From Escherichia coli (lineage in GTDB: Bacteria > Pseudomonadota > Gammaproteobacteria > Enterobacterales > Enterobacteriaceae), in NCBI RefSeq assembly GCF_003018255.1, contig NZ_CP027440.1: 64,000 nt of DNA. The stretch is one strand, 5' to 3'. Below, one piece after another: positions 19,950 to 62,916 of this stretch. The notes beneath the pieces are model-generated. The model was not told where the DNA came from, made no database searches, and was given only the letters and a program-made list of their open reading frames with translations. Each line of letters begins with the position of its first letter. Within the stretch, counting starts at the first letter, position 1. Position numbers and translations under genes: made by a program.

Positions 19950-19951
19950 CG

Positions 19952-42435: not shown

Positions 42436-42478
42436 CACGACACTGCTTATTGCTTTGATTTTATTCTTATCTTTCCCA

Positions 42479-42565: not shown

Positions 42566-42577
42566 TCGGGAAGAAAG

Positions 42578-42651: not shown

Positions 42652-42705
42652 AAATTCTTCAGGCCTTTCAGCCAGACATCCGCTTGACGCCGATGTCTTT
42701 TAAAC

Positions 42706-42781
<76 letters not shown>

Positions 42782-42932
42782 ATTCATCAAGCAATCAGTT
42801 AATCACTTGATTTTATTATCGTCTGGCAATCAGTGCCGCCGTTCGATGCGTTGCATTCTACTTACCTGGCGCGATGAGTCAACGATATTTTTCACCACTT
42901 TTGATCGTTTGCTGAAAATTGCGCCGAAACGA

Positions 42933-43481
42933 TCACTGATCAAGCAAATCTGCACGCGCAGCGCTCAAATATTGCAACATTGACCACAGAGTCAGTACCG
43001 CAGCCACAAAGAAAAGTGCAATACCGGCGTACTCAACCCAAATGTTCGGACGCCACAGCAGCCAGGCCAGCGCCACCATCTGGGCAGTGGTTTTCACTTT
43101 CCCAATCCAGGAGACAGCCACGCTACTGCGTTTACCCAACTCCGCCATCCATTCGCGTAACGCAGAAATAATAATTTCACGGGCGATCATCGTTGCTGCC
43201 GGTAAGGTCACCCACCAGCTGTGATAATGCTCGGTTACCAGCACCATGGCGATAGCCACGAGAACTTTATCTGCTACAGGGTCAAGGAAAGCACCAAACC
43301 GGGTACTCTGGTTCCAGCGGCGTGCCAGAAAACCATCGAACCAGTCAGTCACCGCCGCGACGCAGAAAATGAGCGCGGCGGCAAACGGCGACCAGGTGAC
43401 AGGCAGATAAAAGACCAATACAAAGAATGGGATAAGGATGACACGGAACAGTGTAAGCAACGTAGGGATATTAAATTGCAT
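42933..43481 (-). CDS. pgsA: CDP-diacylglycerol--glycerol-3-phosphate 3-phosphatidyltransferase
   Basis: 182 aa, [30 protein letters not shown]-alcohol phosphatidyltransferase motif (DGFLARR). Confidence 0.96.
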
Positions 43482-43537
43482 AATGACGGGTAACTATCTG
43501 TTGTCAGTAAGATTACCCCTATGTTGCTACAGAGACA

Positions 43538-45370
43538 TCAATGTTTCAACGACCAGAAGATCTTTTCTGCCAGACCTTGCGAAATACCCGGCACTTTTGC
43601 AATTTCCTCGACGCTGGCGTTACGTAAACCTTGCAAACCGCCCATATATTTCAACAACATTTGCCGACGTTTTGGCCCGACGCCTTCAATGGTTTCCAGG
43701 GAACTGGTATTTTTGACCTTCGCCCGTTTTTTACGGTGCCCGCCAATCGCGTGATCGTGTGATTCATCGCGAATATGCTGGATAACATGCAGTGCGGGAG
43801 AATCTGGCGGCAAACTGAATCCCTCACCTTCCGGCTCAAAGAACAGCGTTTCCAGCCCAGCCTTACGATCTGCTCCTTTGGCAACGCCTAGTAGCAGCGG
43901 ATGATTTTTATCCCATGAGACATCCAGTTCGGCGAAAACATTTTTCGCCTGCGCAAGTTGGCCTTTGCCGCCGTCGATAAGGATCACATCCGGGATCTTA
44001 CTCTCGTCGATGGCTTTACCATAACGCCGACGCAGCACCTGATTCATCGCCGCATAATCATCGCCCGGCGTGATGCCAGTAATGTTATAGCGTCGATACT
44101 CCGCACGCAGCGGGCCGTTAGCATCAAACACCACACAGGAAGCGACGGTTTGTTCCCCCATGGTATGGCTGATGTCAAAGCATTCCATCCGCTTCACTTC
44201 CGGCAATTTCAACACGCTGGCAAGCGCGGTCAGTCGCTGGTGAACGGTAGATTGCTGCGAAAGTTTGCTGGTTAAGGCCGTCGCCGCATTGGTGCGCGCG
44301 AGTTTCAGATAACGCGCCCGATCGCCGCGAGGTTTGGTTTGAACATTAATCTTGCGTCCCGCCAGTTCTGAAAGGGAATCGGCGAGCAGCGTTTTATCGC
44401 TAAGATTAAAATCGAGCAGGATCTCACCCGGTAAGGTGCGCATCTGGCTGCCTTGTAAATAGAACTGACCTACGAAGGTTTCCACCACCTCGCTCAGTTC
44501 CGTACCGCCAGGCACTTTCGGGAAATAGCTGCGGCTGCCGAGCACTTTACCCTGACGAATGAACAATACGTGGACACAAGCCATGCCCGCATCGAACGCC
44601 ACACCAATAACGTCGAGGTCGTCGCCGGTATTGGACACAAACTGTTTTTCGGTGACGCGTCGCACCGCCTGAATTTGGTCGCGAATACGTGCCGCTTCTT
44701 CAAACTCCAGATTCTGGCTGGCAGTTTCCATACGACTAATGAGTTGCGTAAGCACCTGATCATCTTTGCCAGACAAAAACAGGCGCACATACTCGACCTG
44801 CTGAGCGTATTCTTCTTCACTCACCAGTCCTTCAACGCACGGTCCCAGACAGCGCCCTATCTGATATTGCAGACACGGACGCGAGCGATTGCGATAAACA
44901 CTATTTTCGCACTGGCGAATGGGGAATATCTTTTGCAGTAGCGCCAGTGTTTCACGTACGGCATAGCCATTCGGGAACGGGCCGAAATATTCACCTTTAG
45001 CATGCTTCGCACCACGATGCATCGCCAGACGCGGATGGGTATCGCCACTCAGGAAGATAAAGGGATAAGATTTATCATCGCGTAGCAAAACGTTGTAACG
45101 CGGCTGATAGAGTTTGATGTAGTTGTGTTCCAGCAACAGCGCTTCGGTTTCTGTATGAGTAACCGTTACATCAATTTGCTGGATCTGGGCGACCAGCGCT
45201 TCGGTTTTGCGCGAAGCGAGGTTGCTACGGAAATAGCTGGAAAGCCGTTTTTTCAGGTCTTTCGCTTTGCCGACATAGATAACCGTACCACCAGCATCGT
45301 ACATGCGATAAACGCCTGGCTGGCTGGTTACGGTTTTTAAAAACGCTTTTGCGTCAAACTGATCACTCAC
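43538..45370 (-). CDS. uvrC: Excinuclease ABC subunit C
   Basis: 610 aa, N-terminal GIY-YIG domain ([19 protein letters not shown]) and C-terminal helix-hairpin-helix. Confidence 0.97.
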
Positions 45371-46023
45371 TGACTTGATAATGTCTCCGCATTACACAGA
45401 CCATGGCGAATTGCCAGGTGAGTCAGCTCAACATCGCCATGAATGTTTAGTTTACTGAACATACGATAGCGGTAGCTGTTCACCGTTTTCGGACTGAGAT
45501 TGAGCTGTTCTGAGATCTCATTGACCTTCTGGCCCTTGGTGATCATCAGCATAATCTGCAATTCACGTTCAGACAAACTGGCAAATGGGCTTTCTGTTTT
45601 TTCTGGTTCGATCTGGCTTAACGCCATTTGTTGAGCGATGTCAGAAGCAATGTAACGCTGCCCTGAATAGACAGAACGGATCGCACTCACAACTTCCTGC
45701 GGAGCCGCGCCTTTGCTGAGGTAGCCCGCAGCACCGGCCTGCATGACTTTCGCTGGTAAAGGGTTTTCTGTATGGACGGTAAGCATGATGATTTTAACAT
45801 CAGCTGTGGAACGCGCGATTTTACGCGTCGCCTCAAGGCCGCCAATGCCCGGCATACTCATGTCCATTAGCACCACGTCAACGGCATTTGCCCGGCACCA
45901 TTTAACGGCGTCTTCACCGCACGATGCCTCTCCGACGACTTTTATACCCTTTATATCTTCCAGAATGCGTCGTATCCCTGCGCGCACCAGTTCGTGGTCA
46001 TCAACAAGTAGAACGTTGATCAA
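45367..46023 (-). CDS. uvrY: Response regulator UvrY (BarA/UvrY two-component system; LuxR/FixJ-type)
   Basis: 218 aa, receiver ([26 protein letters not shown]) plus LuxR-type HTH; stop overlaps the uvrC start by 4 bp. Confidence 0.97.
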
Positions 46024-46481
46024 AGGAATATCTCCAGAAATAGGGATAACGCTACTGATAGTTAGTCATTCGTATATTAGCGGTTTTTATTGCAACTTTG
46101 AAACGTTAAAAATGGTGGGTATTCGATTTTTCTCTCGTTTTTGTAAATTCGATTGTCCACAGTTATGGTCACGCCCGTCACCAACGGCTTCCGGGATCGT
46201 TTCACTGTAAGCCCTGCGATGAAATGTGACAAAAATTGACTTTATTCAGCAAAAATGAAAATCAGCCCGCTGAATATGTAACATTAATTAACCCGAACAA
46301 TACGGGCAAAAAACATTCATGATAAAAATATTTATTGGTCATTATATTAACGTATTTTATAGCACTGCCGATATCACGCTCAAAAAACAACCACTGCTAT
46401 TTTTAGCAAAGCTTATGGTATACTCCGCCGCCTTAACATTTTTCACCGCAAATTTTCATTGCAACATGACGAGGAAAATAA

Positions 46482-46706
46482 ATGAGTACGCCTGATTTTT
46501 CTACTGCCGAGAATAATCAAGAACTGGCAAATGAAGTCTCCTGCCTGAAAGCGATGCTGACGCTGATGCTGCAGGCGATGGGACAAGCTGACGCGGGCCG
46601 CGTGATGTTAAAGATGGAAAAACAGCTTGCGCTGATCGAAGACGAAACCCAGGCTGCAGTATTTTCCAAAACGGTTAAGCAAATTAAACAAGCCTACCGT
46701 CAGTAA
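46482..46706 (+). CDS. yecF: DUF2594-family protein YecF
   Basis: 74 aa ORF between uvrY and sdiA, conserved position. Confidence 0.8.
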
Positions 46707-46772
46707 TATAAAACCGGCTGAGAGCGTGCCTTTCAGCCGGTTTTTGCATCTGGCACGCAGAAAGAAAAGCGA

Positions 46773-47495
46773 TCAAATTAAGCCAGTAGCGGCCGCGTAA
46801 CAGGCCACCTGGGTCTTATTTGGTGCATTGATTTTTTTCTGCATGTTTTTCTGATGGAAATTGACCGTATTCTCAGAGATTGACAAAATCATCGCTATCT
46901 CTGCTGATGTCTTCCCTTCCGCCGTCCATTTCAGAATTTCTTTTTCGCGCTTGCTGAAATTCATCTCTGGCGTCATCACTATTTCATCATTTAAACGCAT
47001 CAGAGCCATCAGACTTTCGCGCACCAGTAACTGCATTTTTAATTGCAGTTCATCACTAAGAATGGGTATTTCGCGCGCAGTGCAACGGGAAAAGGACAAA
47101 AAGCCCAGCGCCCGGTTTGGCAGCATTAAATACTGAGTGACACCGCGGCGTAAACCATGCGCGCGCGCAGCTTCCCATAACGGCTGTGCTTCGCTGAATA
47201 AGTCATCATTCCACATTAAATGGCCCTGACTAAAGTTTTCAGGGTTCAGTACAGGATCAATTGCGAGAAAGTTTTTTGCCTGATAATAACTAACCCACGC
47301 CTCAGGGTAATTGGTGTAGAAAGCCACTTTAGGTCGCGTGAATGGTACCGGGTGGCGAACACATAACGAATAGTAATCGTACTCCAGCTGCTGAGCCTGA
47401 AGCTCTATTTCATGGTAGACCTCTTCTGCGGCCTCCATCCTCTGAAAACGCAACAGCATCGTGCGACGCCAGCTGAAAAAATCCGTATCCTGCAT
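46773..47495 (-). CDS. sdiA: LuxR-family orphan acyl-homoserine-lactone receptor SdiA
   Basis: ORF 46773-47507; start placed at MQDTDFFSWRRTMLLRFQRM (240 aa); C-terminal LuxR HTH. Confidence 0.95.
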   Translation of the reverse strand: MQDTDFFSWRRTMLLRFQRMEAAEEVYHEIELQAQQLEYDYYSLCVRHPVPFTRPKVAFYTNYPEAWVSYYQAKNFLAIDPVLNPENFSQGHLMWNDDLFSEAQPLWEAARAHGLRRGVTQYLMLPNRALGFLSFSRCTAREIPILSDELQLKMQLLVRESLMALMRLNDEIVMTPEMNFSKREKEILKWTAEGKTSAEIAMILSISENTVNFHQKNMQKKINAPNKTQVACYAAATGLI

Positions 47496-47724
47496 AGTAA
47501 ACCGCAACGCCCCTGAGAGTGAGTATCATTTATAATGATAATTCAAACTATCACATAAATAAGATTTATATATAATTTATATTATTCAGGCAATGAATTA
47601 CTTTTGCAAGCCATCGCATTCTCTTATGTTATTAATGAGTTATGCTGATTTGTTAAGCAGTTTTATCACGTTTGAAGTGGCGCACCGCCCCGACAGGTGA
47701 ATCGTCGGGGCTGATTTTTTCTTA

Positions 47725-48477
47725 TTATTGCAGCAGAAACTTCTCGAGGAACTGGCGGGTGCGAGGCTGCTCGGGATCGGCAAATAACGCTTTTGCGGCC
47801 CCCTGCTCGACTATCCGCCCCTGGTCCATAAAGATCGCCCGGTCCGCAACATCCCGGGCAAAGCTCATTTCGTGCGTCACAATCACCATCGTGCGCTTTT
47901 CCTGCGCCAGCTGGCGGATGGTGTTCAGGACTTCGCCCACCAGCTCTGGATCCAGCGCCGACGTTGGCTCGTCAAACAAAATCACTTCAGGACGCATAGC
48001 CAGCGCTCGCGCAATCGCGACACGCTGCTGTTGACCGCCAGACAAACGACGTGGATAGCTGGTTTCTTTACCTGCCAGCCCAACTTTCGCCAGCAGCTCG
48101 CGAGCGCGCGCCGTGGCCTCTTCTTTCGGTTCGCCTTTGACGATCACCGGCCCTTCAATAATGTTTTCCAGCACCGTACGATGCGGAAACAAATTAAAGT
48201 TCTGGAAGACAAACCCGACGTGCTGACGCAACTGGCGAATCAGCGATTTTTGCTGACTTAATGAACGTGCAGTATCAATGGTGATATCGCCAACGGTGAT
48301 GGTTCCCGCTTCCGGTTGTTCCAGCAGATTTATGCTGCGTAGCAACGTGGTTTTGCCGGAACCACTTGGACCGATAATTGCCACCACTTCGCCAGGCTTC
48401 ACCTCAAGGTCGATACCGTGCAGCACCGTCTGACCGTGGAATTTTTTCACCAGGTTCTTAACTTCAATGGCACTCAT
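47725..48477 (-). CDS. tcyN: L-cystine ABC transporter ATP-binding protein
   Basis: 250 aa, Walker A GPSGSGKTT, ABC signature LSGGQQQR, polar amino-acid ABC family. Confidence 0.95.
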   Translation of the reverse strand: MSAIEVKNLVKKFHGQTVLHGIDLEVKPGEVVAIIGPSGSGKTTLLRSINLLEQPEAGTITVGDITIDTARSLSQQKSLIRQLRQHVGFVFQNFNLFPHRTVLENIIEGPVIVKGEPKEEATARARELLAKVGLAGKETSYPRRLSGGQQQRVAIARALAMRPEVILFDEPTSALDPELVGEVLNTIRQLAQEKRTMVIVTHEMSFARDVADRAIFMDQGRIVEQGAAKALFADPEQPRTRQFLEKFLLQ

Positions 48478-49142
48478 TTTGGTTCTCTCTCCTGGCGATT
48501 AAGTTGATTCTCAAAATGGTTCTGCAACGTCGATAATACTGTCGCCATGATCCAGTAGATGAGCGAAGCCGCCAGGTACATGGTGAACACCTCCAGCGTG
48601 CGCGAGGTAATCAACTGCGCCTGACGGAACAGCTCCGGCACCTGGATTGTCGCGGCCAGCGACGTATCTTTTACCAGGCTGATAAAGCTGTTCGACAGCG
48701 GCGGCAACGCCACACGCGCCGCCTGTGGCAAAATCGCGCGACGCATGGTCTGCCACGGCGTCATACCAATACTGGCAGCAGCTTCCCACTGACCTTTATC
48801 AATAGAAGAAATGGCGGCGCGCAGTGTTTCGGCGGCATAGGCGGCAGTGTTTAGCGACAGACCAATCATTGCTGACGGAATGGGATCTAATTCGATGCCA
48901 AACTGCGGCAGGCCGTAATAGATCATAAACAGTTGTGCGATGAGTGGCGTACCACGAAAAATAGAGATATAAAAACGCGCCAGCCAGCGCACGGGCCAGA
49001 TTGGCGAAAGGCGCATCAGCGCGAGAATAAACCCGAGCAGTAAGCCAAAAAACATGCCGCCGATACTGAGTTGCAGCGTATACCCAGCCCCTTTCAGCAG
49101 GAACGGCAAGGAATCAATAACCAGTTGTATACTTTCTTGCAT
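48474..49142 (-). CDS. tcyL: L-cystine ABC transporter permease
   Basis: 222 aa membrane protein; stop overlaps the tcyN start. Confidence 0.94.
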   Translation of the reverse strand: MQESIQLVIDSLPFLLKGAGYTLQLSIGGMFFGLLLGFILALMRLSPIWPVRWLARFYISIFRGTPLIAQLFMIYYGLPQFGIELDPIPSAMIGLSLNTAAYAAETLRAAISSIDKGQWEAAASIGMTPWQTMRRAILPQAARVALPPLSNSFISLVKDTSLAATIQVPELFRQAQLITSRTLEVFTMYLAASLIYWIMATVLSTLQNHFENQLNRQEREPK

Positions 49143-49156
49143 GAGCGTTTCCGGAG

Positions 49157-51048
<1,892 letters not shown>

Positions 51049-51135
51049 ATTTACCCCGAATGTTGTTATGTCTGTTTGCAGTGTAGAGCCATTGTTTGTA
51101 AACACAAAAACAACTCCGCTACATCTTATTCTTAT

Positions 51136-51687
51136 TTAATATATATCAGAAGCAGGCAGACTGGAGGATTTCTGCACAAGTCCGGTACACGTTTGACGCT
51201 GATAGTGTTGATACTTCCGTAACGCAATGCGGTAATTGTTGGTGCTGGTGGTGGGCAGCCACGGGGCGAGGATTTCATCAAGGAAACCGTCCTGCAGCTG
51301 ATCGAGGGAAATATTTTGCTCGTGTAGATGATTACCCAAACGGCGCAGACGAACGACATATTCACGCACCGTACCTGGGCTCATTTCAGTTTGCTCAAAA
51401 AGAAATTGCTTAAAGCCGATAATATCGAAAAAATCACTCTGCGTTTTGCAATGTAAATCACCGCAAAATCGGCACAATGCCGCCCATGATTTTTGTTCCA
51501 CTTGCCAGCCATTTTCATCAAGCAGCATGTCCAGGCGGGAAATCTCGATTTTATTCACTATTTTGCCGTCGCGAACGAGGGTAATGCGATCGAGTAATTT
51601 ACGGCAATGCGCGCAATGGGTCTGGCTGTGTTTAAAGTCTTTAAGATAGCGGCTTAATGGCCGTCTTTTCAGGTGCTGCACCATCAT
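51136..51687 (-). CDS. fliZ: Regulator FliZ
   Basis: ORF 51136-51723; start placed at MMVQHLKRRPLSRYLKDFKHSQTHCAHCRK (183 aa); co-transcribed with fliA. Confidence 0.94.
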   Translation of the reverse strand: MMVQHLKRRPLSRYLKDFKHSQTHCAHCRKLLDRITLVRDGKIVNKIEISRLDMLLDENGWQVEQKSWAALCRFCGDLHCKTQSDFFDIIGFKQFLFEQTEMSPGTVREYVVRLRRLGNHLHEQNISLDQLQDGFLDEILAPWLPTTSTNNYRIALRKYQHYQRQTCTGLVQKSSSLPASDIY

Positions 51688-51732
51688 TAAGAACTCCTGG
51701 TAGTCAAAATTAAAGTGCGGCATTTACTGACG

Positions 51733-52452
51733 TTATAACTTACCCAGTTTAGTGCGTAACCGTTTAATGGCCTGGCTGTGTAACTGACTGACCCGCGATT
51801 CCCCGACCTCCAGCACCGCGCCAATCTCTTTGAGATTCAGCTCTTCCTGGTAATAGAGGGTTAATACCAGTTTTTCGCGCTCCGGCAACGTTTCGATAGC
51901 TTCCATCACCCGCTGGCGCAGATTACTGTCCAGCAGTTGTTGTAGCGGGTTTTCTCGCTGATGATCATCAGTAACCAGTTCGATGCTATCGCCGTGCTCT
52001 TCGCGCCACTCATCGTAGGAGAAGAGCTGGCTGTTATTGGTGTCGAGCAACATTTGGCGATAGTCGGCAATATCGATCCCTAAACGTTCCGCTACCTCAG
52101 TTTCCGTGGCGTTGCGGCCAAGTTCCTGCTCCAGTTGCCCTATTGCCTGTGCCACTTCACGCGCGTTGCGTCGCACGCTGCGCGGCACCCAGTCACGGCT
52201 GCGAAGTTCATCCAGCATAGCGCCACGGATACGCTGCACTGCGTAAGTTGTAAATGCCGTTCCTTGTAGGGCGTCATAGCGTTCGACGGCATTGAGTAAC
52301 CCAATGCCGCCCGCCTGTAGCAGATCGTCAAGTTCCACGCTCGCGGGCAGTCGAACCTGCAGGCGCAATGCTTCGTGACGCACCAGCGGGACATAACGCT
52401 GCCACAGCGAGTGTTTATCCATTACACCTTCAGCGGTATAGAGTGAATTCAC
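51733..52452 (-). CDS. fliA: Flagellar sigma factor sigma-28 (FliA)
   Basis: 239 aa with sigma-70 family regions 2 to 4. Confidence 0.98.
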   Translation of the reverse strand: MNSLYTAEGVMDKHSLWQRYVPLVRHEALRLQVRLPASVELDDLLQAGGIGLLNAVERYDALQGTAFTTYAVQRIRGAMLDELRSRDWVPRSVRRNAREVAQAIGQLEQELGRNATETEVAERLGIDIADYRQMLLDTNNSQLFSYDEWREEHGDSIELVTDDHQRENPLQQLLDSNLRQRVMEAIETLPEREKLVLTLYYQEELNLKEIGAVLEVGESRVSQLHSQAIKRLRTKLGKL

Positions 52453-52574
52453 GATAAACAGCCCTGCGTTATATGAGTTATCGGCATGATTATCCGTTTC
52501 TGCAGGGTTTTTAATCGGACGATTAGTGGGTGAAATGAGGGGTTATTTGGGGGTTACCGGTAAATTGCGGGCAG

Positions 52575-52597
52575 AAAAAACCCCGCCGTTGGCGGGG
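52575..52597 (-). terminator. Rho-independent terminator downstream of fliC
   Basis: Stem ccccgcc (52581-52587) / ggcgggg (52591-52597); the plus-strand A-run 52575-52580 gives a T-run after the stem on the minus strand. Confidence 0.7.
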
Positions 52598-52628
52598 AAG
52601 CACGTTGCTGACAAATTACCATTCATGT

Positions 52629-52728
<100 letters not shown>

Positions 52729-52770
52729 ATTTGGCGTTGCCGTCAGTCTCAGTTAATCAGGTTACGACGA

Positions 52771-54510
52771 TTAACCCTGCAGCAGAGACAGAACCTGCTG
52801 CGGTACCTGGTTAGCTTTTGCCAGCACGGAGTTACCGGCCTGCTGGATGATCTGCGCTTTCGACATGTTGGACACTTCGGTCGCATAGTCGGCGTCCTGA
52901 ATACGGGACTGCGCTTCGGACAGGTTGGTAGTGGTGTTGTTCAGGTTGGTGACCGCGGAATCCAGACGGTTTTGCACCGCACCGAGGGAGGAGCGGAATT
53001 TGTCGATGGAGCTGATGGCTTCGTCCAGAGCTTTCAGTGGATCGGCGGTGGTTGCAGCTTTAGTTTCAGCGTCAGTAGTAAAATTACCATCCGCTGAAAC
53101 ATAGACTGCTTTACCTGAACCATTGGTCACAGTTCCGTCTTTTTGCAAAAACAGATTGGTTGTATTATCGGTAGTCAGTGAACCATCAGCTTTGGTGTAA
53201 GCGTCTTCAAAAACTGTACCTGTGTATTGTTGTACTATACCTTTACTATCAACTTTAATATCGCCTGCGCTGGTACCAGTAGCTCCAACATCAACTGTGA
53301 ATCCTGTGGACTTAGTTGCCGATTGAAGAGACTCAGCACTCATTCTTGCATTTGCTACAGTGATTGCACCAGAAGTAGTAGCATCAGTACCGCCATCCAG
53401 AGTGAAGGTTGTTTCATCTTCAGTTGTAATTACCGTAGATACGGCACCCGGTGTGCCTGTTGTATGCCAGTTTTTAGTCAGTGCATCAAGAGTGGCTGCT
53501 TTGACAGTCCCAGCATTGTTTTGAGTGAGGTTACCATCTACGTCAATAAATAGTTCTGAACCATCTTTCGCGGTAATTTTACCGTCGCTAGCCAATACAA
53601 CGTCAATTGACGTAGAACCAATTTTAACGTTTAAGTTAGCAGTATCGCCCGCTTTTGGTGTCAGGAAGGATTGTAACTGAGCACTGTTACTATCACCAGA
53701 ATTTGTACCAGCTGCAATAGTTGCACTATATGTAAAATCACCTGTAGCGCTGTTGTATGTATAATCTGTAGCTGTTGGCGATCCAAAACCATTTGCAATT
53801 GTGGCATTAACTTTTGCGTTATTAGCCAAACTCGCAATTACATCTGCAGCTGTAGATGTTTTCAGGCCTGCGCTAACAGTATAGGTAACTGTACCATTAG
53901 CATCAGCAGTACCTGGAGCCAAGAGTTGAGCTGCTGCCAAATCAGATTTAGTCGCTGCAGTATTAGCCACAGCCCCGCCACCATTCACATTAAACCCACT
54001 CAGCCCCAGCGTATCAGAGTCAATTTTCTTCAGATCAATAGTGATAGTCTGGCCGTCATTCGCACCAACCTGAATTTTCATTGAACCGTCTTTCGCCAGT
54101 ACGTTCACGCCGTTGAACTGGGTCTGGCCAGATACGCGGTCAATTTCGTCCAGACGGGATTTGATTTCGTCCTGAATGGAGTCCAGATCCGAATCGGAGT
54201 TAGTCCCGGTAGAAGCCTGAACCGTCAGTTCACGGATACGCTGTAAGTTGTTGTTGATTTCGGACAGCGCGCCTTCGGTGGTCTGTGCAACGGAGATACC
54301 GTCGTTGGCGTTACGTGCAGCTTGAGTCAGACCTTTAATGTTAGAAGTAAAACGGTTAGCAATCGCCTGACCTGCGGCGTCATCCTTCGCGCTGTTAATA
54401 CGCAAGCCAGAAGACAGACGCTCGATAGAACTCGACAGCGCAGACTGGTTCTTGTTGATATTATTTTGAGTGATCAGCGAGAGGCTGTTGGTATTAATGA
54501 CTTGTGCCAT
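52771..54510 (-). CDS. fliC: Flagellin (H antigen); long allele with a divergent central domain
   Basis: 579 aa; N-terminal about 175 aa (MAQVINTNSLSLITQNNINKNQSALSSSIERLSSGLRINSAKDDAAGQAIANRF...) and C-terminal about 90 aa (...LAKANQVPQQVLSLLQG) are the conserved D0/D1 segments; the central part is Thr/Ala/Gly/Asn-rich and unlike K-12. Confidence 0.97.
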   Translation of the reverse strand: MAQVINTNSLSLITQNNINKNQSALSSSIERLSSGLRINSAKDDAAGQAIANRFTSNIKGLTQAARNANDGISVAQTTEGALSEINNNLQRIRELTVQASTGTNSDSDLDSIQDEIKSRLDEIDRVSGQTQFNGVNVLAKDGSMKIQVGANDGQTITIDLKKIDSDTLGLSGFNVNGGGAVANTAATKSDLAAAQLLAPGTADANGTVTYTVSAGLKTSTAADVIASLANNAKVNATIANGFGSPTATDYTYNSATGDFTYSATIAAGTNSGDSNSAQLQSFLTPKAGDTANLNVKIGSTSIDVVLASDGKITAKDGSELFIDVDGNLTQNNAGTVKAATLDALTKNWHTTGTPGAVSTVITTEDETTFTLDGGTDATTSGAITVANARMSAESLQSATKSTGFTVDVGATGTSAGDIKVDSKGIVQQYTGTVFEDAYTKADGSLTTDNTTNLFLQKDGTVTNGSGKAVYVSADGNFTTDAETKAATTADPLKALDEAISSIDKFRSSLGAVQNRLDSAVTNLNNTTTNLSEAQSRIQDADYATEVSNMSKAQIIQQAGNSVLAKANQVPQQVLSLLQG

Positions 54511-54586
54511 GATTCGTTATCCTATATTGCAAGTCGTTGATTACGTATTGGGTTTCCACCCGTCGGCTCAATCGCCGTCAACCCTG

Positions 54587-54613
54587 TTATCGTCTGTCGT
54601 AAAACAACCTTTA
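54587..54613 (-). promoter_or_regulatory. Sigma-28 class 3 promoter of fliC
   Basis: Minus-strand reading gives TAAAGGTT-N11-GACGATAA, a close match to the sigma-28 consensus, about 80 bp upstream of the fliC ATG. Confidence 0.8.
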
Positions 54614-54705
54614 GAATTTTTTTCACAAACAGCCATTTTTTGTTAGTCGCCGAAATACTCTTTTCTCTGCCCCTTATTCCCGCTATTAAAAAAAACAATT
54701 AAACG

Positions 54706-54732
54706 TAAACTTTGCGCAATTCAGGCCGATAA
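54706..54732 (+). promoter_or_regulatory. Sigma-28 class 3 promoter of fliDST
   Basis: TAAACTTT-N11-GCCGATAA on the plus strand, 44 bp upstream of the fliD ATG. Confidence 0.85.
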
Positions 54733-54775
54733 CCCCGGTATTCGTTTTACGTGTCGAAAGATAAAAGGAAATCGC

Positions 54776-56182
54776 ATGGCAAGTATTTCATCGCTGGGAG
54801 TCGGGTCAGGTCTGGATTTAAGTTCAATCCTTGATAGCCTCACCGCCGCGCAAAAAGCGACGCTAACCCCTATTTCAAATCAGCAATCGTCGTTTACCGC
54901 TAAACTTAGCGCCTACGGTACGCTGAAAAGCGCGCTGACGACTTTCCAGACCGCCAATACTGCATTGTCTAAAGCCGATCTTTTTTCCGCCACCAGCACT
55001 ACCAGCAGCACCACCGCGTTCAGTGCCACCACTGCGGGTAACGCCATCGCCGGGAAATACACCATCAGCGTCACCCATCTGGCGCAGGCGCAAACCCTGA
55101 CCACGCGCACCACCAGAGACGATACGAAAACGGCGATCGCCACCAGCGACAGTAAACTCATCATTCAACAAGGCGGCGACAAAGATCCGATTACCATTGA
55201 TATCAGCGCGGCTAACTCATCGTTAAGCGGGATCCGTGATGCTATCAACAACGCAAAAGCGGGCGTAAGCGCAAGCATCATTAACGTGGGTAACGGTGAA
55301 TATCGTCTGTCAGTCACATCAAATGACACCGGCCTTGATAATGCGATGACACTCTCGGTCAGCGGTGATGATGCGCTACAAAGTTTTATGGGCTATGACG
55401 CCAGTGCCAGCAGCAACGGCATGGAGGTCTCGGTCGCCGCCCAGAATGCGCAGCTGACGGTCAACAACGTCGCCATTGAGAACAGCAGCAACACCATCAG
55501 CGACGCGCTGGAAAACATCACCCTGAACCTGAACGATGTCACCACGGGCAACCAGACGCTAACCATCACTCAGGACACCTCCAAAGCGCAAACGGCGATT
55601 AAAGACTGGGTGAATGCCTATAACTCGCTAATAGATACCTTCAGCAGCCTGACCAAATACACCGCCGTAGATGCGGGAGCTGATAGCCAGAGTTCTAGCA
55701 ATGGCGCACTGCTCGGCGACTCCACGTTGCGGACGATTCAGACGCAGTTGAAATCGATGCTGAGTAATACCGTTAGTTCTTCCAACTATAAAACGTTGGC
55801 GCAGATTGGTATCACGACCGATCCCAGCGATGGCAAACTGGAACTGGATGCCGACAAACTCACCGCTGCACTGAAAAAAGATGCCAGCGGCGTAGGTGCA
55901 TTGATTGTTGGCGATGGTAAAAAAACCGGCATCACGACCACCATCGGCAGCAACCTGACCAGTTGGCTTTCGACAACAGGCATTATTAAAGCCGCTACCG
56001 ATGGCGTTAGTAAGACCCTGAATAAGTTAACCAAAGACTACAACGCCGCCAGCGATCGCATTGATGCGCAGGTCGCGCGCTACAAAGAGCAATTTACCCA
56101 ACTGGACGTTTTAATGACCTCGTTAAACAGCACCAGCAGCTACTTAACGCAGCAGTTCGAAAACAACAGTAATTCCAAGTAA
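54776..56182 (+). CDS. fliD: Flagellar filament cap protein FliD
   Basis: 468 aa, MASISSLGVGSGLDLSSILDSLTAAQKATL N-terminus. Confidence 0.97.
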   Translation: MASISSLGVGSGLDLSSILDSLTAAQKATLTPISNQQSSFTAKLSAYGTLKSALTTFQTANTALSKADLFSATSTTSSTTAFSATTAGNAIAGKYTISVTHLAQAQTLTTRTTRDDTKTAIATSDSKLIIQQGGDKDPITIDISAANSSLSGIRDAINNAKAGVSASIINVGNGEYRLSVTSNDTGLDNAMTLSVSGDDALQSFMGYDASASSNGMEVSVAAQNAQLTVNNVAIENSSNTISDALENITLNLNDVTTGNQTLTITQDTSKAQTAIKDWVNAYNSLIDTFSSLTKYTAVDAGADSQSSSNGALLGDSTLRTIQTQLKSMLSNTVSSSNYKTLAQIGITTDPSDGKLELDADKLTAALKKDASGVGALIVGDGKKTGITTTIGSNLTSWLSTTGIIKAATDGVSKTLNKLTKDYNAASDRIDAQVARYKEQFTQLDVLMTSLNSTSSYLTQQFENNSNSK

Positions 56183-56206
56183 TCAATATTCATCGGGAGA
56201 CAGGTC

Positions 56207-56617
56207 ATGTACGCGGCAAAAGGCACCCAGGCCTATGCACAAATTGGCGTCGAAAGCGCCGTAATGAGCGCCAGCCAGCAACAGCTGGTCACCATGCTAT
56301 TTGATGGAGTGCTGAGCGCACTGGTTAGAGCGCGCCTGTTTATGCAGGACAACAATCAGCAAGGCAAAGGCGTCTCTTTGTCAAAAGCGATCAACATCAT
56401 TGAGAACGGGCTGCGGGTGAGTCTTGATGAAGAGAGCAAAGACGAACTAACCCAAAACTTGATTGCTCTTTATAGCTATATGGTCAGGCGCTTGCTGCAA
56501 GCCAATTTACGCAACGATGTCTCCGCAGTCGAAGAAGTGGAAGCATTAATGCGCAATATTGCCGATGCCTGGAAAGAGTCTTTACTCTCCCCTTCTTTGA
56601 TTCAGGACCCAGACTGA
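56207..56617 (+). CDS. fliS: Flagellin-specific export chaperone FliS
   Basis: 136 aa ORF directly after fliD. Confidence 0.97.
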
Positions 56618-56982
56618 TGAACAATGCACCGCATTTGTATTTCGCCTGGCAACAACTCGTCGAAAAAAGTCAGCTCATGTTACGCCTGGCGACAGAAGAA
56701 CAATGGGACGAACTCATCGCCAGCGAAATGGCGTATGTGAATGCGGTGCAGGAGATCGCACACCTGACTGAAGAGGTTGCCCCGTCCACCACGATGCAGG
56801 AGCAGCTCCGCCCGATGCTGCGCCTGATTCTCGACAACGAAAGCAAGGTAAAGCAGTTATTACAGATTCGGATGGATGAACTGGCGAAACTGGTCGGTCA
56901 GTCATCGGTGCAAAAATCGGTGTTAAGTGCCTATGGCGATCAGGGTGGCTTTGTGCTGGCTCCGCAGGATAACCTCTTTTGA
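56617..56982 (+). CDS. fliT: FliD chaperone and anti-FlhDC factor FliT
   Basis: 121 aa; start overlaps the fliS stop. Confidence 0.95.
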
Positions 56983-57059
56983 ATCTTAAAGAGCCAATGG
57001 CTCGCGAATAATCTGATTACGGCTACGCTTCTAATGTTCCCCTTGAATGGAGTCGAAGA

Positions 57060-58547
57060 ATGCGTAATCCCACGCTGTTACAATGTTTTCACTGGTATTA
57101 CCCGGAAGGCGGTAAGCTCTGGCCTGAACTGGCCGAGCGCGCCGACGGTTTTAATGATATTGGTATCAATATGGTCTGGTTGCCGCCCGCCTATAAAGGC
57201 GCATCGGGCGGGTACTCGGTCGGCTACGACTCCTATGATTTATTTGATTTAGGCGAGTTTGATCAGAAAGGCAGCATCCCTACTAAATATGGCGATAAAG
57301 CACAACTGCTGGCCGCCATTGACGCCCTGAAACGTAATGACATTGCGGTGCTGCTGGACGTGGTAGTCAACCACAAAATGGGCGCGGATGAAAAAGAAGC
57401 TATTCGCGTGCAACGTGTAAATGCTGATGACCGTACGCAAATTGACGAAGAAATCATTGAGTGCGAAGGCTGGACGCGTTACACCTTCCCCGCGCGTGCC
57501 GGGCAATACTCGCAGTTTATCTGGGATTTCAAATGTTTTAGCGGTATCGACCATATCGAAAACCCTGATGAAGATGGCATTTTTAAAATTGTTAACGACT
57601 ATACCGGAGAAGGCTGGAACGATCAGGTTGATGATGAACTCGGTAATTTCGATTATCTGATGGGTGAGAATATCGATTTTCGCAATCATGCCGTGACGGA
57701 AGAGATTAAATACTGGGCGCGCTGGGTGATGGAACAAACGCAATGCGACGGCTTTCGTCTTGATGCGGTCAAACATATTCCGGCATGGTTTTATAAAGAG
57801 TGGATCGAACACGTACAGGAAGTTGCGCCAAAGCCGCTGTTTATTGTGGCTGAATACTGGTCGCATGAAGTCGATAAACTGCAAACGTATATTGATCAGG
57901 TGGAAGGCAAAACCATGCTGTTTGATGCGCCGCTGCAGATGAAATTCCATGAAGCATCGCGCATGGGTCGCGACTACGACATGACGCAGATCTTCACTGG
58001 GACGCTGGTGGAAGCCGATCCTTTTCACGCCGTAACCCTCGTTGCCAACCACGACACCCAACCGTTGCAAGCCCTCGAAGCACCGGTCGAACCGTGGTTT
58101 AAACCGCTGGCGTATGCCTTAATTTTGTTGCGGGAAAATGGCGTTCCTTCGGTGTTCTATCCGGACCTCTACGGTGCACATTACGAAGATGTCGGTGGTG
58201 ACGGGCAAACCTATCCGATAGATATGCCAATAATCGAACAGCTTGATGAGTTAATTCTCGCCCGTCAGCGTTTCGCCCACGGTGTACAGACGTTATTTTT
58301 CGACCATCCGAACTGCATTGCCTTTAGCCGCAGTGGCACCGACGAATATCCCGGCTGCGTGGTGGTCATGTCGAACGGGGATGATGGCGAAAAAACCATT
58401 CATCTGGGAGAGAATTACGGCAATAAAACCTGGCGTGATTTTCTGGGGAATCGGCAAGAGAGCGTAGTGACCGACGAAAACGGCGAAGCGACCTTCTTTT
58501 GCAACGGCGGCAGCGTCAGCGTGTGGGTTATCGAAGAGGTGATTTAA
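57060..58547 (+). CDS. amyA: Cytoplasmic alpha-amylase (GH13)
   Basis: 495 aa, no signal peptide, GH13 conserved regions ([14 protein letters not shown]-type segments). Confidence 0.95.
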
Positions 58548-58553
58548 ATTCAT

Positions 58554-58572
58554 CCCCGGCGGCAAGCCGGGG
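58554..58572. terminator. Hairpin between convergent amyA and yedD (probable terminator)
   Basis: Stem ccccggc (58554-58560) / gccgggg (58566-58572), loop ggcaa; the flanking T-run is weak. Confidence 0.55.
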
Positions 58573-58580
58573 AGATTTCA

Positions 58581-58997
58581 TTACGGCAGTGGCGTCGGTA
58601 ACGGCGCTTTATCCAGCGCGGCGGCACACTCTGCCGTCGGGCGATCCACACGCTCCATCGTCATACCATCGTACTCAATGGTGTTACCGTCACGCTCAAC
58701 CTCGTACAGCTCACGTTTCACGGTAACGTTAGTGAGATCATCAGACATCAATGTCAACTTACCCGGCACGGCAATCACCCGCTGCCACTGACGGCAATCC
58801 AGGGTATCGCCCTCTTTAGTGACAATCAGGCTGCCTATCGCTTCCGGACTGACCAGCGCACTTTGCGGCCCTTTGGTCTGCCAGTAGCCCGCCAGCCAGT
58901 CCGGCGCGGGGGTTTTCACGACATTGTTATAGTTTTCGACTTCGGCACAGCCCGCCAGCAACATGAGCGCGCCTGCAATTGCGAGTTTTTTCATCAT
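58581..58997 (-). CDS. yedD: Lipoprotein YedD
   Basis: 138 aa with lipobox MMKKLAIAGALMLLAGC. Confidence 0.88.
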   Translation of the reverse strand: MMKKLAIAGALMLLAGCAEVENYNNVVKTPAPDWLAGYWQTKGPQSALVSPEAIGSLIVTKEGDTLDCRQWQRVIAVPGKLTLMSDDLTNVTVKRELYEVERDGNTIEYDGMTMERVDRPTAECAAALDKAPLPTPLP

Positions 58998-59180
58998 TCG
59001 TCCTGCATGAGAAGAAAAGAGGATTGTGGCATTAAAGCCCTGATGTCGCCAGCCTTTCCAGGTTCAGAGAGAAATTTGATCTAACTATTATTTTTGTGAA
59101 TTATTACCCCGAAAATAAATTTGCTTGATGTATGATTCGCAACTCTTGTTTCAAACCTTCTGAGTTCAGAGGCTACATAC

Positions 59181-60386
59181 ATGTCATGGCAGCAATTCAA
59201 ACACGCCTGGTTGATTAAATTCTGGGCCCCCATCCCTGCGGTCATCGCGGCGGGTATTCTCTCCACTTACTACTTTGGCATCACTGGCACCTTTTGGGCT
59301 GTCACGGGTGAATTTACCCGCTGGGGCGGTCAGCTTCTGCAGCTGTTCGGCGTCCATGCTGAAGAGTGGGGTTATTTTAAAATTATCCATCTGGAAGGAT
59401 CGCCATTAACCCGCATCGACGGCATGATGATCCTCGGTATGTTTGGCGGCTGCTTTGCTGCAGCGCTGTGGGCCAACAATGTCAAACTACGCATGCCACG
59501 CAGCCGTATCCGCATTATGCAGGCCATTATTGGCGGCATTATCGCTGGTTTTGGCGCGCGTCTGGCAATGGGCTGTAACCTGGCGGCGTTCTTTACCGGC
59601 ATTCCTCAGTTCTCGCTGCATGCCTGGTTCTTTGCCATCGCCACTGCCATTGGTTCATGGTTTGGCGCGCGCTTTACCCTGCTGCCCATCTTCCGTATTC
59701 CCGTGAAAATGCAGAAAGTTTCTGCCGCCTCACCGCTGACGCAAAAACCGGATCAGGCGCGGCGTCGTTTTCGTCTCGGGATGCTGGTCTTTTTCGGCAT
59801 GCTGGGCTGGGCGCTGCTCACGGCGATGAACCAACCAAAACTGGGGCTGGCAATGCTGTTTGGCGTCGGCTTTGGTTTACTGATTGAACGTGCGCAAATC
59901 TGCTTTACTTCGGCGTTCCGCGATATGTGGATCACCGGACGTACCCATATGGCGAAAGCAATCATTATCGGTATGGCGGTGAGTGCCATCGGGATCTTCA
60001 GTTACGTACAGTTAGGCGTTGAACCTAAAATCATGTGGGCGGGACCAAATGCGGTAATTGGTGGTTTACTTTTTGGTTTTGGCATCGTGCTGGCAGGCGG
60101 CTGCGAAACCGGCTGGATGTACCGCGCGGTAGAAGGCCAGGTGCACTACTGGTGGGTCGGTCTGGGCAACGTGATCGGCTCAACGATTCTGGCGTATTAC
60201 TGGGATGATTTCGCTCCGGCGCTGGCCACCGACTGGGACAAAATCAACCTGCTGAAAACCTTTGGTCCGATGGGTGGCCTGCTGGTGACATATTTGCTGT
60301 TGTTTGCAGCTCTAATGTTGATTATCGGCTGGGAAAAACGCTTCTTCCGCCGTGCGGCACCGCAGATTGCTAAGGAGATCGCATGA
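59181..60386 (+). CDS. yedE: YeeE/YedE-family inner membrane transporter (proposed selenium/sulfur compound transport)
   Basis: 401 aa polytopic membrane protein with duplicated conserved Cys-containing segments (GGCETGW); operonic with the TusA-like yedF. Confidence 0.88.
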   Translation: MSWQQFKHAWLIKFWAPIPAVIAAGILSTYYFGITGTFWAVTGEFTRWGGQLLQLFGVHAEEWGYFKIIHLEGSPLTRIDGMMILGMFGGCFAAALWANNVKLRMPRSRIRIMQAIIGGIIAGFGARLAMGCNLAAFFTGIPQFSLHAWFFAIATAIGSWFGARFTLLPIFRIPVKMQKVSAASPLTQKPDQARRRFRLGMLVFFGMLGWALLTAMNQPKLGLAMLFGVGFGLLIERAQICFTSAFRDMWITGRTHMAKAIIIGMAVSAIGIFSYVQLGVEPKIMWAGPNAVIGGLLFGFGIVLAGGCETGWMYRAVEGQVHYWWVGLGNVIGSTILAYYWDDFAPALATDWDKINLLKTFGPMGGLLVTYLLLFAALMLIIGWEKRFFRRAAPQIAKEIA

Positions 60387-60616
60387 AAAATATCGTTCCT
60401 GATTACCGTCTTGATATGGTGGGTGAACCCTGCCCTTATCCGGCTGTCGCAACCCTTGAGGCGATGCCGCAGTTAAAAAAAGGGGAGATCCTGGAAGTGG
60501 TGAGCGACTGTCCGCAGTCGATCAATAATATTCCACTGGATGCGCGTAATCACGGCTATACGGTGCTGGATATTCAGCAAGACGGGCCGACCATTCGTTA
60601 TTTAATTCAGAAGTAA
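60383..60616 (+). CDS. yedF: TusA-like sulfurtransferase-fold protein YedF
   Basis: 77 aa with the CPxP motif (GEPCPYP); start overlaps the yedE stop. Confidence 0.9.
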   Translation: MKNIVPDYRLDMVGEPCPYPAVATLEAMPQLKKGEILEVVSDCPQSINNIPLDARNHGYTVLDIQQDGPTIRYLIQK

Positions 60617-60724
60617 TCCCTCATTCCCGCTGTGGCCCACAGCGGGAACATCGTTACCACTCTATCACATAGATTTTACCCGCCCCCTCTCCTATTCTTT
60701 TCAGTGTGCTCTCAGGAGGTTTCT

Positions 60725-61393
60725 ATGTGTGGACGCTTTGCCCAATCCCAAACGCGTGAAGATTACCTCGCGTTTCTCGCGGAAGATATTGAACGCGATA
60801 TTCCCTACGATCCCGAACCTATTGGCAGATACAACGTCGCGCCGGGAACCAAAGTCCTTCTGCTCAGTGAACGTGATGAACACCTTCATCTGGATCCGGT
60901 TTTCTGGGGATATGCTCCCGGATGGTGGGATAAACCGCCGCTGATTAACGCCCGCGTAGAAACTGCCGCAACCAGTCGCATGTTTAAACCGCTCTGGCAA
61001 CACGGTCGGGCAATCTGTTTTGCCGATGGCTGGTTTGAGTGGAAAAAAGAAGGCGACAAAAAACAGCCTTATTTTATCTATCGCGCTGACGGACAACCTG
61101 TTTTTATGGCCGCGATAGGTAGCACACCGTTTGAGCGTGGTGACGAAGCCGAAGGATTTTTGATCGTCACTGCGGCGGCAGATCAAGGTCTGGTAGATAT
61201 TCATGACCGCCGCCCGCTGGTTCTGTCGCCAGAAGCTGTACGGGAATGGATGCGGCAAGAGGTTGGCGGTAAAGAAGCCTCAGAAATTGCTGCCAGTGGC
61301 TGTGTGCCAGCAAACCAGTTCACCTGGCACCCGGTATCGTGCGCGGTGGGTAATGTTAAAAACCAGGGAGCGGCGTTAATTCAACCTGTTTGA
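60725..61393 (+). CDS. yedK: SOS-response associated peptidase (SRAP) YedK; abasic-site DNA-protein crosslinking enzyme
   Basis: Real start MCGRFAQ at 60725, preceded by SD aggaggt at 60714-60720; the ORF-track start at 60632 is an upstream extension; 222 aa. Confidence 0.93.
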   Translation: MCGRFAQSQTREDYLAFLAEDIERDIPYDPEPIGRYNVAPGTKVLLLSERDEHLHLDPVFWGYAPGWWDKPPLINARVETAATSRMFKPLWQHGRAICFADGWFEWKKEGDKKQPYFIYRADGQPVFMAAIGSTPFERGDEAEGFLIVTAAADQGLVDIHDRRPLVLSPEAVREWMRQEVGGKEASEIAASGCVPANQFTWHPVSCAVGNVKNQGAALIQPV

Positions 61394-61503
61394 TAAGCCT
61401 GGAGATTATTGATCAACAATACTGCGTCATAAGAAATCTCTATTAGACAAAGATTTCAGTACCTGTTGGCATATTGCAAAAATAACACCAATACGGAATC
61501 GTC

Positions 61504-61983
61504 ATGTTCACGATTAAAACAGATGATCTCACCCATCCAGCAGTGCAAGCATTAGTGGCTTACCATATTTCCGGCATGCTGCAGCAGTCTCCCCCCGAAA
61601 GTAGTCATGCTTTAGATGTGCAAAAATTACGTAACCCGAAAGTGACATTCTGGTCAGTATGGGAAGGCGAACAACTCGCAGGAATTGGTGCGCTGAAGTT
61701 GCTGGATGATAAACATGGCGAACTGAAATCAATGCGTACCGCGCCAAATTATTTACGTCGGGGTGTCGCCAGTCTGATTTTACGCCACATTTTGCAGGTC
61801 GCCCATGACAGATGCCTTCATCGCCTGAGCTTAGAAACGGGTACACAGGCTGGATTTACGGCCTGCCATCAACTTTATTTGAAACATGGATTCGTTGATT
61901 GCGAACCGTTTGCTGATTATCAACTTGATCCGCACAGTCGATTTTTGTCATTGACGCTATGCGAAAATAATGAATTGCCATGA
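61504..61983 (+). CDS. yedL: GNAT-family N-acetyltransferase YedL
   Basis: 159 aa with acetyl-CoA binding motif (RRGVASLILRHIL). Confidence 0.88.
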   Translation: MFTIKTDDLTHPAVQALVAYHISGMLQQSPPESSHALDVQKLRNPKVTFWSVWEGEQLAGIGALKLLDDKHGELKSMRTAPNYLRRGVASLILRHILQVAHDRCLHRLSLETGTQAGFTACHQLYLKHGFVDCEPFADYQLDPHSRFLSLTLCENNELP

Positions 61984-61990
61984 GCCAGAC

Positions 61991-62032
61991 GCAGCACATT
62001 CTTGCATTCGACGTGCTGCGCCTTTATTTATT
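61991..62032 (+). terminator. Rho-independent terminator downstream of yedL
   Basis: Stem gcagcac (61991-61997) / gtgctgc (62013-62019) followed by a T-rich tract cctttatttatt. Confidence 0.65.
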
Positions 62033-62387
62033 ATCAGCCGCAAATGTCTTGTCCTTAGACGCTCTTTCCACATGCGCCACAAGAAACCTCTATTCCAGTG
62101 ACACAATTATGCCTGATTATTTCCCTAGCCCGGAATATGAATAAAAACATCAAATAAGATGAAATTATCAAAATATTAATGTTGCGTCTGAGGTCGTAAC
62201 AACATCCGACGTGGTGATATGTCAAATGAGACACTCTGATGGTCAAAGGGTTTATCGCGTTTACAGATCGTGGATGGCAGAAAACTTTCAGAATCAGGTT
62301 TCCATTTTAAACCAGAAATTAAGTGAGTTTGTCCCATCCATGCCCCACGCGGTGAGATCGGATGTAATCAACAACAGGTTACAAAAC

Positions 62388-62702
62388 CTACACCTGCATG
62401 CTCATCACTTCCTGATACGCCGCCACCAGCTTATTACGCACCTGAATCCCCATTTGCATTGAAACTGAGGCTTTTTGCATATCGGTCATCACATCGTTTA
62501 ACGCCACGCCGGGTTCACCGAGAGTGAATTTTTCTGCCTGCGTGCGGGCGGCTGTTTGTGTATCGCTTATGCGATCGAGCGCGGCGTGCAGCTGCCCGGC
62601 AAAACTAATGGTCGGTTGTGGCAGTGATTCCTGTGTACGCGCACTCATCGCCGTAGCCTGTAACTGGCTGATAACCCCTTCAATCCCCTGTATCGCTGAC
62701 AT
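62388..62702 (-). CDS. fliE: Flagellar hook-basal body protein FliE
   Basis: ORF 62388-62732; start placed at [22 protein letters not shown] (104 aa). Confidence 0.96.
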
Positions 62703-62916
62703 TTTCATCTCCCGGATAATTTCTGGCAGCAAAGCCTACCAGTAAGTCAATAAGACAAAGGCGCTAAATAGCAACAAAAAAACGGGTTTATTGGCGGATA
62801 GAAAAAAACGAAAGCACAAATAATGGGAGCGTCAATTTTTCGAGTTTGCTGACCCGGGAGTGAGTCTTGTTCCACTTTGCCAATAACGCCGTCCATAATC
62901 AGCCACGAGGTGCGCG

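Follow-up and report, generated by a model that had tools for sequence, protein, structure and literature searches.

The fliC gene in the window, by which we mean the whole 64,000-nt stretch of Escherichia coli DNA analysed here, carries an H28 flagellin allele, which sequence comparison places in the classical, non-O145 cluster of this serotype. The conserved ends of the encoded protein enclose a central region that is only ~32% identical to its counterpart in the K-12 flagellin and that appears to have moved between E. coli lineages as a cassette. Taken as a whole, an intact fliC with a hypervariable surface-exposed middle of the classical H28 type, introduced by cassette transfer and probably expressed, is very probably the correct account of this locus. 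No evidence against the H28 flagellin assignment was met in this analysis. The allele itself is already public and common, and the biology of H28 flagellin has been described before.

Architecture and expression of the fliC locus

The fliC coding sequence occupies positions 52771–54510 on the minus strand and encodes 579 residues plus a stop codon, as defined by the open reading frame from its ATG and by its Pfam domains. Flagellin_N (PF00669) covers residues 5–140 (E = 1.5e-46; 158 bits against a cut-off of 26.6) and Flagellin_C (PF00700) covers residues 492–577 (E = 5e-32; 110.5 bits against a cut-off of 23). Between them, residues 349–483 match FliC (PF12445), the enterobacterial FliC middle-region family. 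An ORF of 108 residues lies antisense within the gene (53227–53553, plus strand) and was taken as a chance ORF.

Alignment with the K-12 protein divides the flagellin into three parts. The N-terminal conserved part (residues 1–175; 53986–54510, minus strand), which contains the D0/D1 helices and leads into the spoke, is 93.7% identical to K-12 FliC and 100% identical to the flagellins of both SE11 and O145:H28. The C-terminal conserved part (residues 488–579 and the stop codon; 52771–53049, minus strand) comprises the D1/D0 helices and is 95.7% identical to K-12. Each of them holds the corresponding Pfam domain. The central variable H-antigen region (residues 176–487; 53050–53985, minus strand) holds the outer domains and is set apart by its low identity to K-12, its low G+C content and its predicted structure. 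Here, identity to K-12 falls to 31.8% over 217 alignable positions, with 110 positions gapped. The G+C content is 0.40–0.45 in the centre compared with 0.50–0.56 in the ends, and threonine, alanine, glycine and asparagine make up 50.3% of the 312 central residues (55 T, 48 A, 33 G and 21 N) as opposed to 33.3% of the ends.

These values bear out the original prediction, which had described conserved D0/D1 ends around roughly 310 residues rich in Thr, Ala, Gly and Asn that differ from both K-12 and H7. The centre is only 22–24% identical to the H7 outer region in a structural alignment; the H7 flagellin chain (7SN4) has 585 residues. The K-12 length of 498 residues given there was also correct, as fliC of MG1655 measures 1497 nt and encodes 498 residues, which makes the window flagellin 81 residues longer. 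Identity with the K-12 H48 allele, named beforehand as the finding that would overturn the prediction, is ruled out by the divergent centre and by this difference in length. The K-12 H48 flagellin (b1923; PDB 8CXM for its core) thus shares with the window the locus, D0/D1 ends at 94–96% identity, the promoter region and the 3′ UTR, but it is shorter, its centre is ~32% identical where alignable, and it lacks a GNLTxN motif that is discussed below.

Within D1, the sequence motif LQRIRELTVQ occupies residues 89–98 (54217–54246, minus strand), a region that we take to be the counterpart of the TLR5-recognition site of Salmonella flagellin. In an alignment of 18 sequences, R91, R93, E94, L95, V97 and Q98 are invariant.

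The gene order around fliC (dcyD, tcyJ, fliZ, fliA, fliC and, divergently, fliD, fliS, fliT, amyA) is that of K-12 MG1655. As in that strain, fliC is transcribed away from fliDST and has fliAZ downstream. The fliA gene is intact and adjoins fliC. The consensus of sigma-28 promoters is TAAAGTTT-N11-GCCGATAA. A putative class 3 promoter of fliC that resembles this sigma-28 (FliA) consensus, TAAAGGTT-N11-GACGATAA, lies at 54587–54613 on the minus strand and deviates by one mismatch in each half. A second promoter-like site on the plus strand (54706–54732), upstream of the fliD start at 54776, is a candidate for driving the divergent fliDST operon. It matches TAAA-N15-GCCGATAA exactly, a pattern found at two sites in the window where 0.05 would be expected by chance. 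A scan for sigma-70 promoters performed no better than on shuffled sequence and was disregarded.

Downstream of the coding sequence, the 3′ UTR (52571–52770, minus strand) contains a predicted intrinsic terminator, with a stem at 52597–52581 followed by a T run. Aligned intergenic sequences from K-12, SE11 and O145:H28 show 98% mean column identity here, and this UTR appears as the counterpart of the region that carries the annotation of the small RNA FliX in K-12. No Rfam family matched at gathering thresholds across 51000–56000, and the FliX-like nature of the UTR is therefore supported by the K-12 alignment.

The standard fliA–fliC–fliD layout, the sigma-28-type promoter, the terminator and the intact state of the flagellar and chemotaxis ORFs (22 of 22 in the window) together suggest that fliC is probably expressed. 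The alternative is that fliC is present but silent, in which case the strain would be non-motile (H−) and the allele merely a genotype. There is precedent for this, as many strains of H28 genotype are non-motile in the laboratory, with only 8 of 36 O145:H28 strains found to be motile (PMC4441469). Moreover, tap is a pseudogene in the close relative JNE23-011. In the window, however, tap is intact, as are fliC, fliA, fliZ, fliD, fliS, fliT, flhDC, flhBAE, motAB and the che genes, and promoter-like sites for sigma-28 are in place. We thus regard a silent gene as rather unlikely, although it is the strongest of the competing explanations, and retain an intact and probably expressed fliC as the preferred reading.

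Assignment to the classical H28 cluster

At the DNA level, the window fliC is 100% identical to that of JNE23-011 and JNE112863, two human isolates from Japan with complete genomes. It is 99.0–99.4% identical to the gene in about 44 other complete genomes, which include BMH-17-0027, SE11 and B7A. Among these are strains of known serotype. Compared with SE11 (O152:H28), identity amounts to 99.0% in DNA over all 1740 nt and 99.7% in protein (577 of 579 residues), with 99.4% protein identity in the central region (residues 176–487). Compared with BMH-17-0027 (O8:H28), it amounts to 99.3% in DNA over the full gene. An identity of 97% or more to a reference allele had been proposed as sufficient for assigning an H type, and on this basis the allele is H28.

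SE11, a strain of serotype O152:H28 with a fliC of 1740 bp, has been reported to group with the H28 type strain HW30 (O132:H28, AY250010; Beutin et al. 2015, PMC4441469). The window was compared with the H28 type by eye on the published protein alignment, from residue 185 to the C-terminus. Read in this way, the O132:H28 row (N87), which falls into the same cluster as SE11, differs from the window at about five residues (S213G, G355S, D372A, Y429H and V433G; PMC4441469, S1 alignment). It thus carries G213, S355, A372, H429 and G433, of which H429 and G433 are also found in the O145 form.

Real-time PCR oligonucleotides designed for generic detection of fliC-H28 (PMC4441469) lend further support to the assignment. 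Each has a single exact match in the window, with the forward primer at 53503–53522 (minus strand), the probe at 53449–53475 (minus strand) and the reverse primer at 53424–53445 (plus strand). Both primers and the probe are correctly oriented on fliC and yield an in-silico amplicon of 99 bp at 53424–53522 (minus strand).

SE11, B7A and BMH-17-0027 all encode WP_000079707.1 (579 residues, 1740 nt), the common H28 flagellin, with which the window protein shares its length, its locus and 577 of 579 residues. The first difference in the protein alignment is D372 (codon at 53395–53397, minus strand), which is alanine in WP_000079707.1. In the published alignment, position 372 is alanine in the O145, O28, O152 and O132 H28 sequences, and aspartate is absent from all five H28 sequences included. 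The second difference is T413 (codon at 53272–53274, minus strand). This position is asparagine in SE11, B7A and O8:H28, and threonine in the O132:H28 and O145:H28 sequences. The exact window protein is already public as WP_001563518.1 (UniRef A0A1Q4PHS3), is present on 775 contigs and is identical to FliC of JNE23-011; JNE112863 shares the DNA sequence of the gene as well. A literature search found no paper on JNE23-011, JNE112863 or their accessions.

As D372 and T413 are both amino-acid changes in the surface region, and D372 occurs in none of the five published H28 sequences, the two substitutions could in principle shift the epitope enough to produce a new or untypeable H antigen that merely resembles H28. 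This is very unlikely. The protein matches serotyped H28 strains at all but two residues, T413 recurs in O132:H28 and O145:H28, and the exact protein is common. Furthermore, O145:H28 strains are still typed as H28 with a centre that is 14% divergent (PMC4441469), which makes it improbable that two substitutions would abolish reactivity. The window flagellin would accordingly be expected to react as H28.

The H28 label also covers a form associated with enterohaemorrhagic strains, the fliC-H28 variant of EHEC O145:H28 and EPEC O28:H28, which has been described as 1743 bp long, ~92% identical to, and set apart from, the classical H28 cluster (PMC4441469). If the window carried this variant, the strain would be placed in that pathogenic lineage. 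The two forms share the H serotype, the generic H28 PCR target, identical conserved ends and a C-terminal half of the centre that is very nearly the same. However, the O145:H28 gene encodes a protein of 580 residues (WP_000079704.1) from 1743 nt, compared with 579 residues from 1740 nt in the window, and the centres share no more than 86.1% of their residues and 86.3% of their nucleotides. They diverge in the first half of the centre, which is H46-like for the O145 form in the published alignment, and the O145 form has its own specific PCR target. Of the three O145-specific oligonucleotides, the two searched (the probe and the 750–781 primer) had no match in the window at up to three mismatches. 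Membership in the O145:H28 lineage can thus be dismissed with near certainty, and the classical H28 cluster remains the assignment that we carry forward.

Fold of the outer region and a possible sheath

In the window flagellin, the D0/D1 ends (residues 1–175 and 488–579) would make up the polymerising helical core of the filament, and the 312-residue middle would fold into β-rich outer domains on its surface, where the H epitopes lie. Core formation is suggested by the ends, which are near-identical to those of flagellins solved within filaments (the H6, H7 and K-12 cores). We infer from this that the window FliC polymerises into a flagellar filament. AlphaFold places helices in the N-terminal part at residues 7–40, 45–99 and 106–129.

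An AlphaFold model of the entire protein (pLDDT 75, low in D0) was uninformative on the domains, with TM-scores of ~0.35 and RMSD values of ~29 Å for the whole chain, so that the outer region was modelled alone. The resulting model of residues 168–494 is rich in β-strands and has a pLDDT of 86.8 and a pTM of 0.74. A Foldseek search against the PDB matched it to only five chains at E ≤ 1e-3, all of them flagellins with large outer regions. These are the flagellins of Azotobacter vinelandii (9n59), EHEC H7 (7sn4, two chains), EPEC H6 (7sn7) and Achromobacter (7sqd), with E-values from 1e-15 to 3e-9, query TM-scores of 0.49–0.57, RMSD values of 7–9 Å and sequence identities of 22–30%. Hinges between the domains keep the TM-scores at a moderate level. 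By this model, the middle region shares its fold class with the outer regions of these four flagellins, which are made up of several domains.

The closest counterparts of known structure come from pathogenic E. coli. The flagellin of EPEC O127:H6 (7SN7/7SQJ, 548 residues) aligns without interruption from end to end (E = 5e-180), and its outer region matches with E = 3e-11, a query TM-score of 0.55 and 30% identity. For EHEC O157:H7 (7SN4), the full-length alignment is likewise continuous (E = 2e-159), and the outer region matches with E = 1.5e-14 and a query TM-score of 0.53 at an identity of only 24%.

In H7, H6 and Achromobacter filaments, an outer-domain sheath arises from pairing of the outer domains (Kreutzberger et al. 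2022, PMC8931119). N319 and N323 of H7 lie in a conserved dimer site in D4, and their mutation disrupts both the sheath and motility (PMC8931119). In an alignment with H7, the segment GNLTQNNAG of the window flagellin (residues 326–334; 53509–53535, minus strand) appears as the counterpart of this D4 dimer-interface motif of sheath-forming flagellins. Its N327 and N331 are matched in H7 by the two asparagines of GNLTTNNAG (‘ddagnlttnnag’). By alignment count these H7 residues fall at 320 and 324, one above the published numbering, so that their equivalence to N319 and N323 is inferred. The Asn-x3-Asn motif of the D4 dimer site is hence conserved in the window FliC as it is in the H6 and H7 sheath formers. 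All H28-like relatives share GNLTQNNAG, which K-12 lacks.

Together, the D4 motif and an outer-region fold like those of H7, H6 and Achromobacter make sheathed H28 filaments plausible, with outer domains that may alternate by 180° and pair via GNLTQNNAG in a manner similar to H7 and H6. To our knowledge, the structure of an H28 filament has never been solved. A more specific proposal, in which the H28 sheath forms through this D4 motif yet packs with a symmetry other than the dimer of H7 or the seamed tetramer of H6, with D372 and T413 perhaps subtly altering the epitopes, is offered tentatively, and we consider it somewhat less probable than its opposite.

Distribution and exchange of the central cassette

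Among 5426 complete E. coli genomes, the H28 centre is present at 99% identity or more in 68, and the 86% form occurs in 27 more. The surrounding 24 kb (window positions 40001–64000), by comparison, were found in 4757 of the same genomes. With positions 1–20000 and 40001–64000 of the window searched, this supports the earlier description of the centre as the most strain-specific sequence. In a protein search with the central domain, the flagellin of Kluyvera cryocrescens had a centre 65% identical to that of the window, among the matches listed. This search returned at least 20 proteins, the H28 proteins not being among the matches listed, and served as a source of sequences for alignment only.

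The genome of DETEC-S792 shows where the variable segment begins and ends. In a blastn comparison, it is 99.69% identical to the window over 40001–53045 and 99.36% identical over 53976–64000. The segment between these blocks (53046–53975, minus strand) has no detectable blastn match in DETEC-S792, whose fliC encodes a different flagellin of 560 residues. This natural swap of an H-antigen cassette puts the limits of the variable part only a few bases away from those originally predicted (53050–53985).

The comparison with SE11 reveals the reverse situation, a shared centre in a divergent background. Over 13.7 kb around fliC, the window and SE11 differ at 243 positions (~1.9%; flank divergence 1.88%). 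For the 936 nt of the centre, the flank divergence predicts 17.6 differences, but only two are found (Poisson P = 4e-6), namely those that give rise to A372 and N413 in SE11. A further 15 differences in fliC are confined to the conserved ends and are all silent at the protein level. A near-identical centre on flanks that are ~1.9% divergent bears the mark of a cassette that has passed from one lineage to another through recombination, its end-points falling in the conserved ends; for H7, such a pattern has already been published and explained in the same way (PMC7018530). The H28 centre would thus be a mobile cassette that homologous recombination in the conserved flanks transfers from one E. 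coli lineage to another. Such transfer would leave the centre nearly identical in unrelated backgrounds and the conserved ends with synonymous differences specific to each background.

These observations qualify the original proposal that the exact allele identifies the lineage. At the nucleotide level, the exact allele recurs only in JNE23-011 and JNE112863 among the complete E. coli genomes and does appear to mark a small group. The H type alone, however, does not identify a lineage, as follows from the SE11 pattern and the DETEC-S792 swap: the H28 centre sits on a divergent background in SE11, and a background as close as that of DETEC-S792 bears another flagellin. Even for JNE23-011, the relationship is confined to part of the window. 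It differs at a single position across a block of 21.5 kb (40773–62320), but is ~1–1.6% divergent at 34–41 kb and beyond 62.3 kb. Moreover, the left 20 kb of the window are closer to 200164 and E04 (99.7%) than to JNE (99.1%), and no complete genome in the collection searched matched the whole window.

Nothing in the H28 result alters existing knowledge of flagellin, and recombination of this kind is the norm in published work on fliC. The allele call is useful for typing, since it points to a genotype of the classical cluster and not to the EHEC O145:H28 form, and the exact allele would tie the window strain to a small set of isolates from humans in Japan, at any rate over the 21.5-kb block. 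DETEC-S792 provides a clean textbook case of H-antigen cassette exchange, a 930-nt swap with sharp ends in a background that is 99.4–99.7% identical. Under the proposed cassette transfer, the central cassette would be of much more recent origin than its host genomes.

Divergence from the closest genome

Comparing the entire window (1-64000) with the corresponding loci of JNE23-011 (L014 and L015), a strain with identical fliC DNA, reveals a mosaic pattern of divergence. Between 40773 and 62320 the two genomes are separated by a single difference, and differences are also few at 16-34 kb. Divergence rises to ~1-1.6% in portions of 1-16 kb, at 34-41 kb and past 62.3 kb. Such alternation suggests that the two genomes are related through recombination blocks and not by a single clonal relationship.

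Divergence restarts at 62321, inside a stretch between yedL and fliE (~62223-62363, plus strand) that corresponds to a 141-nt integrase fragment, annotated in JNE23-011 as a pseudogene lacking both ends. The fragment is a probable remnant left by an ancient mobile element next to the fliE-fliF flagellar cluster.

The aspS-nudB junction and the tar-tap-che operon

A 125-bp segment between aspS and nudB is absent from the window (~935/936) and present in JNE23-011 (L014 813-937) and the other best-matching genomes. Because this segment is missing, nudB of the window has a start (MAYKRP...) directly behind the aspS stop codon; the annotated alternative is a GTG start giving KDKVYKRP.... Other E. 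coli genomes, SK1144 and SA186 among them, contain the short junction without interruption and with 100% identity, indicating that it is a natural polymorphism. A small repeat element, present in some genomes and missing from others, may account for the difference.

An intact 533-aa ORF in the window (20831-22432, minus strand) is tap, the gene for methyl-accepting chemotaxis protein IV. In JNE23-011, the closest genome, the annotation lists tap as a pseudogene whose reading frame is interrupted by a stop at codon 96. A second exact sigma-28 consensus, TAAAGTTT-N11-GCCGATAA (24171-24197, minus strand), lies immediately upstream of tar, which starts at 24139; it is predicted to act as the class 3 promoter expected for the tar-tap-che operon.

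Features within and downstream of fliC

The 3′ UTR of fliC carries two small substitution clusters (52618-52670, minus strand), GGA- for ACAT and GAATGGT for AAAGCGC, neither of which occurs in K-12, SE11 (O152:H28) or the variant O145:H28 form. The terminator loop has one change, A for C. The region around the clusters, in which the sRNA FliX is annotated in K-12, is otherwise invariant. The strand opposite fliC has an ORF of 108 aa within the variable region (53227-53553, plus strand), most likely a chance ORF.

Exchange and apparent mosaicism of the H28 centre

Aligning the window with strain DETEC-S792 (NZ_CP116067.1) leaves 53046-53975 unalignable, a gap that corresponds to the centre of fliC, while the sequences on both sides are 99.4-99.7% identical. 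DETEC-S792 encodes a different flagellin of 560 aa (L005 12770-14452). The position of the gap between such similar flanks indicates a clean natural H-antigen swap.

Within H28 itself, the published flagellin alignment (PMC4441469 S1) includes an O132:H28 row that has H429 and G433, as does the O145 form, and elsewhere follows the SE11/window form. In the O145 form, the first half of the centre is H46-like. The H28 alleles hence appear to be mosaics of one another and of H46-like sequence.

Relatives of the H28-like centre also occur outside Escherichia. A Kluyvera cryocrescens flagellin (P0001) is 65% identical across all 312 aa of the central region, and a Yersinia rochesterensis flagellin (P0012) is 39% identical to it. 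These matches are consistent with the sharing of hypervariable flagellin cassettes among Enterobacterales.
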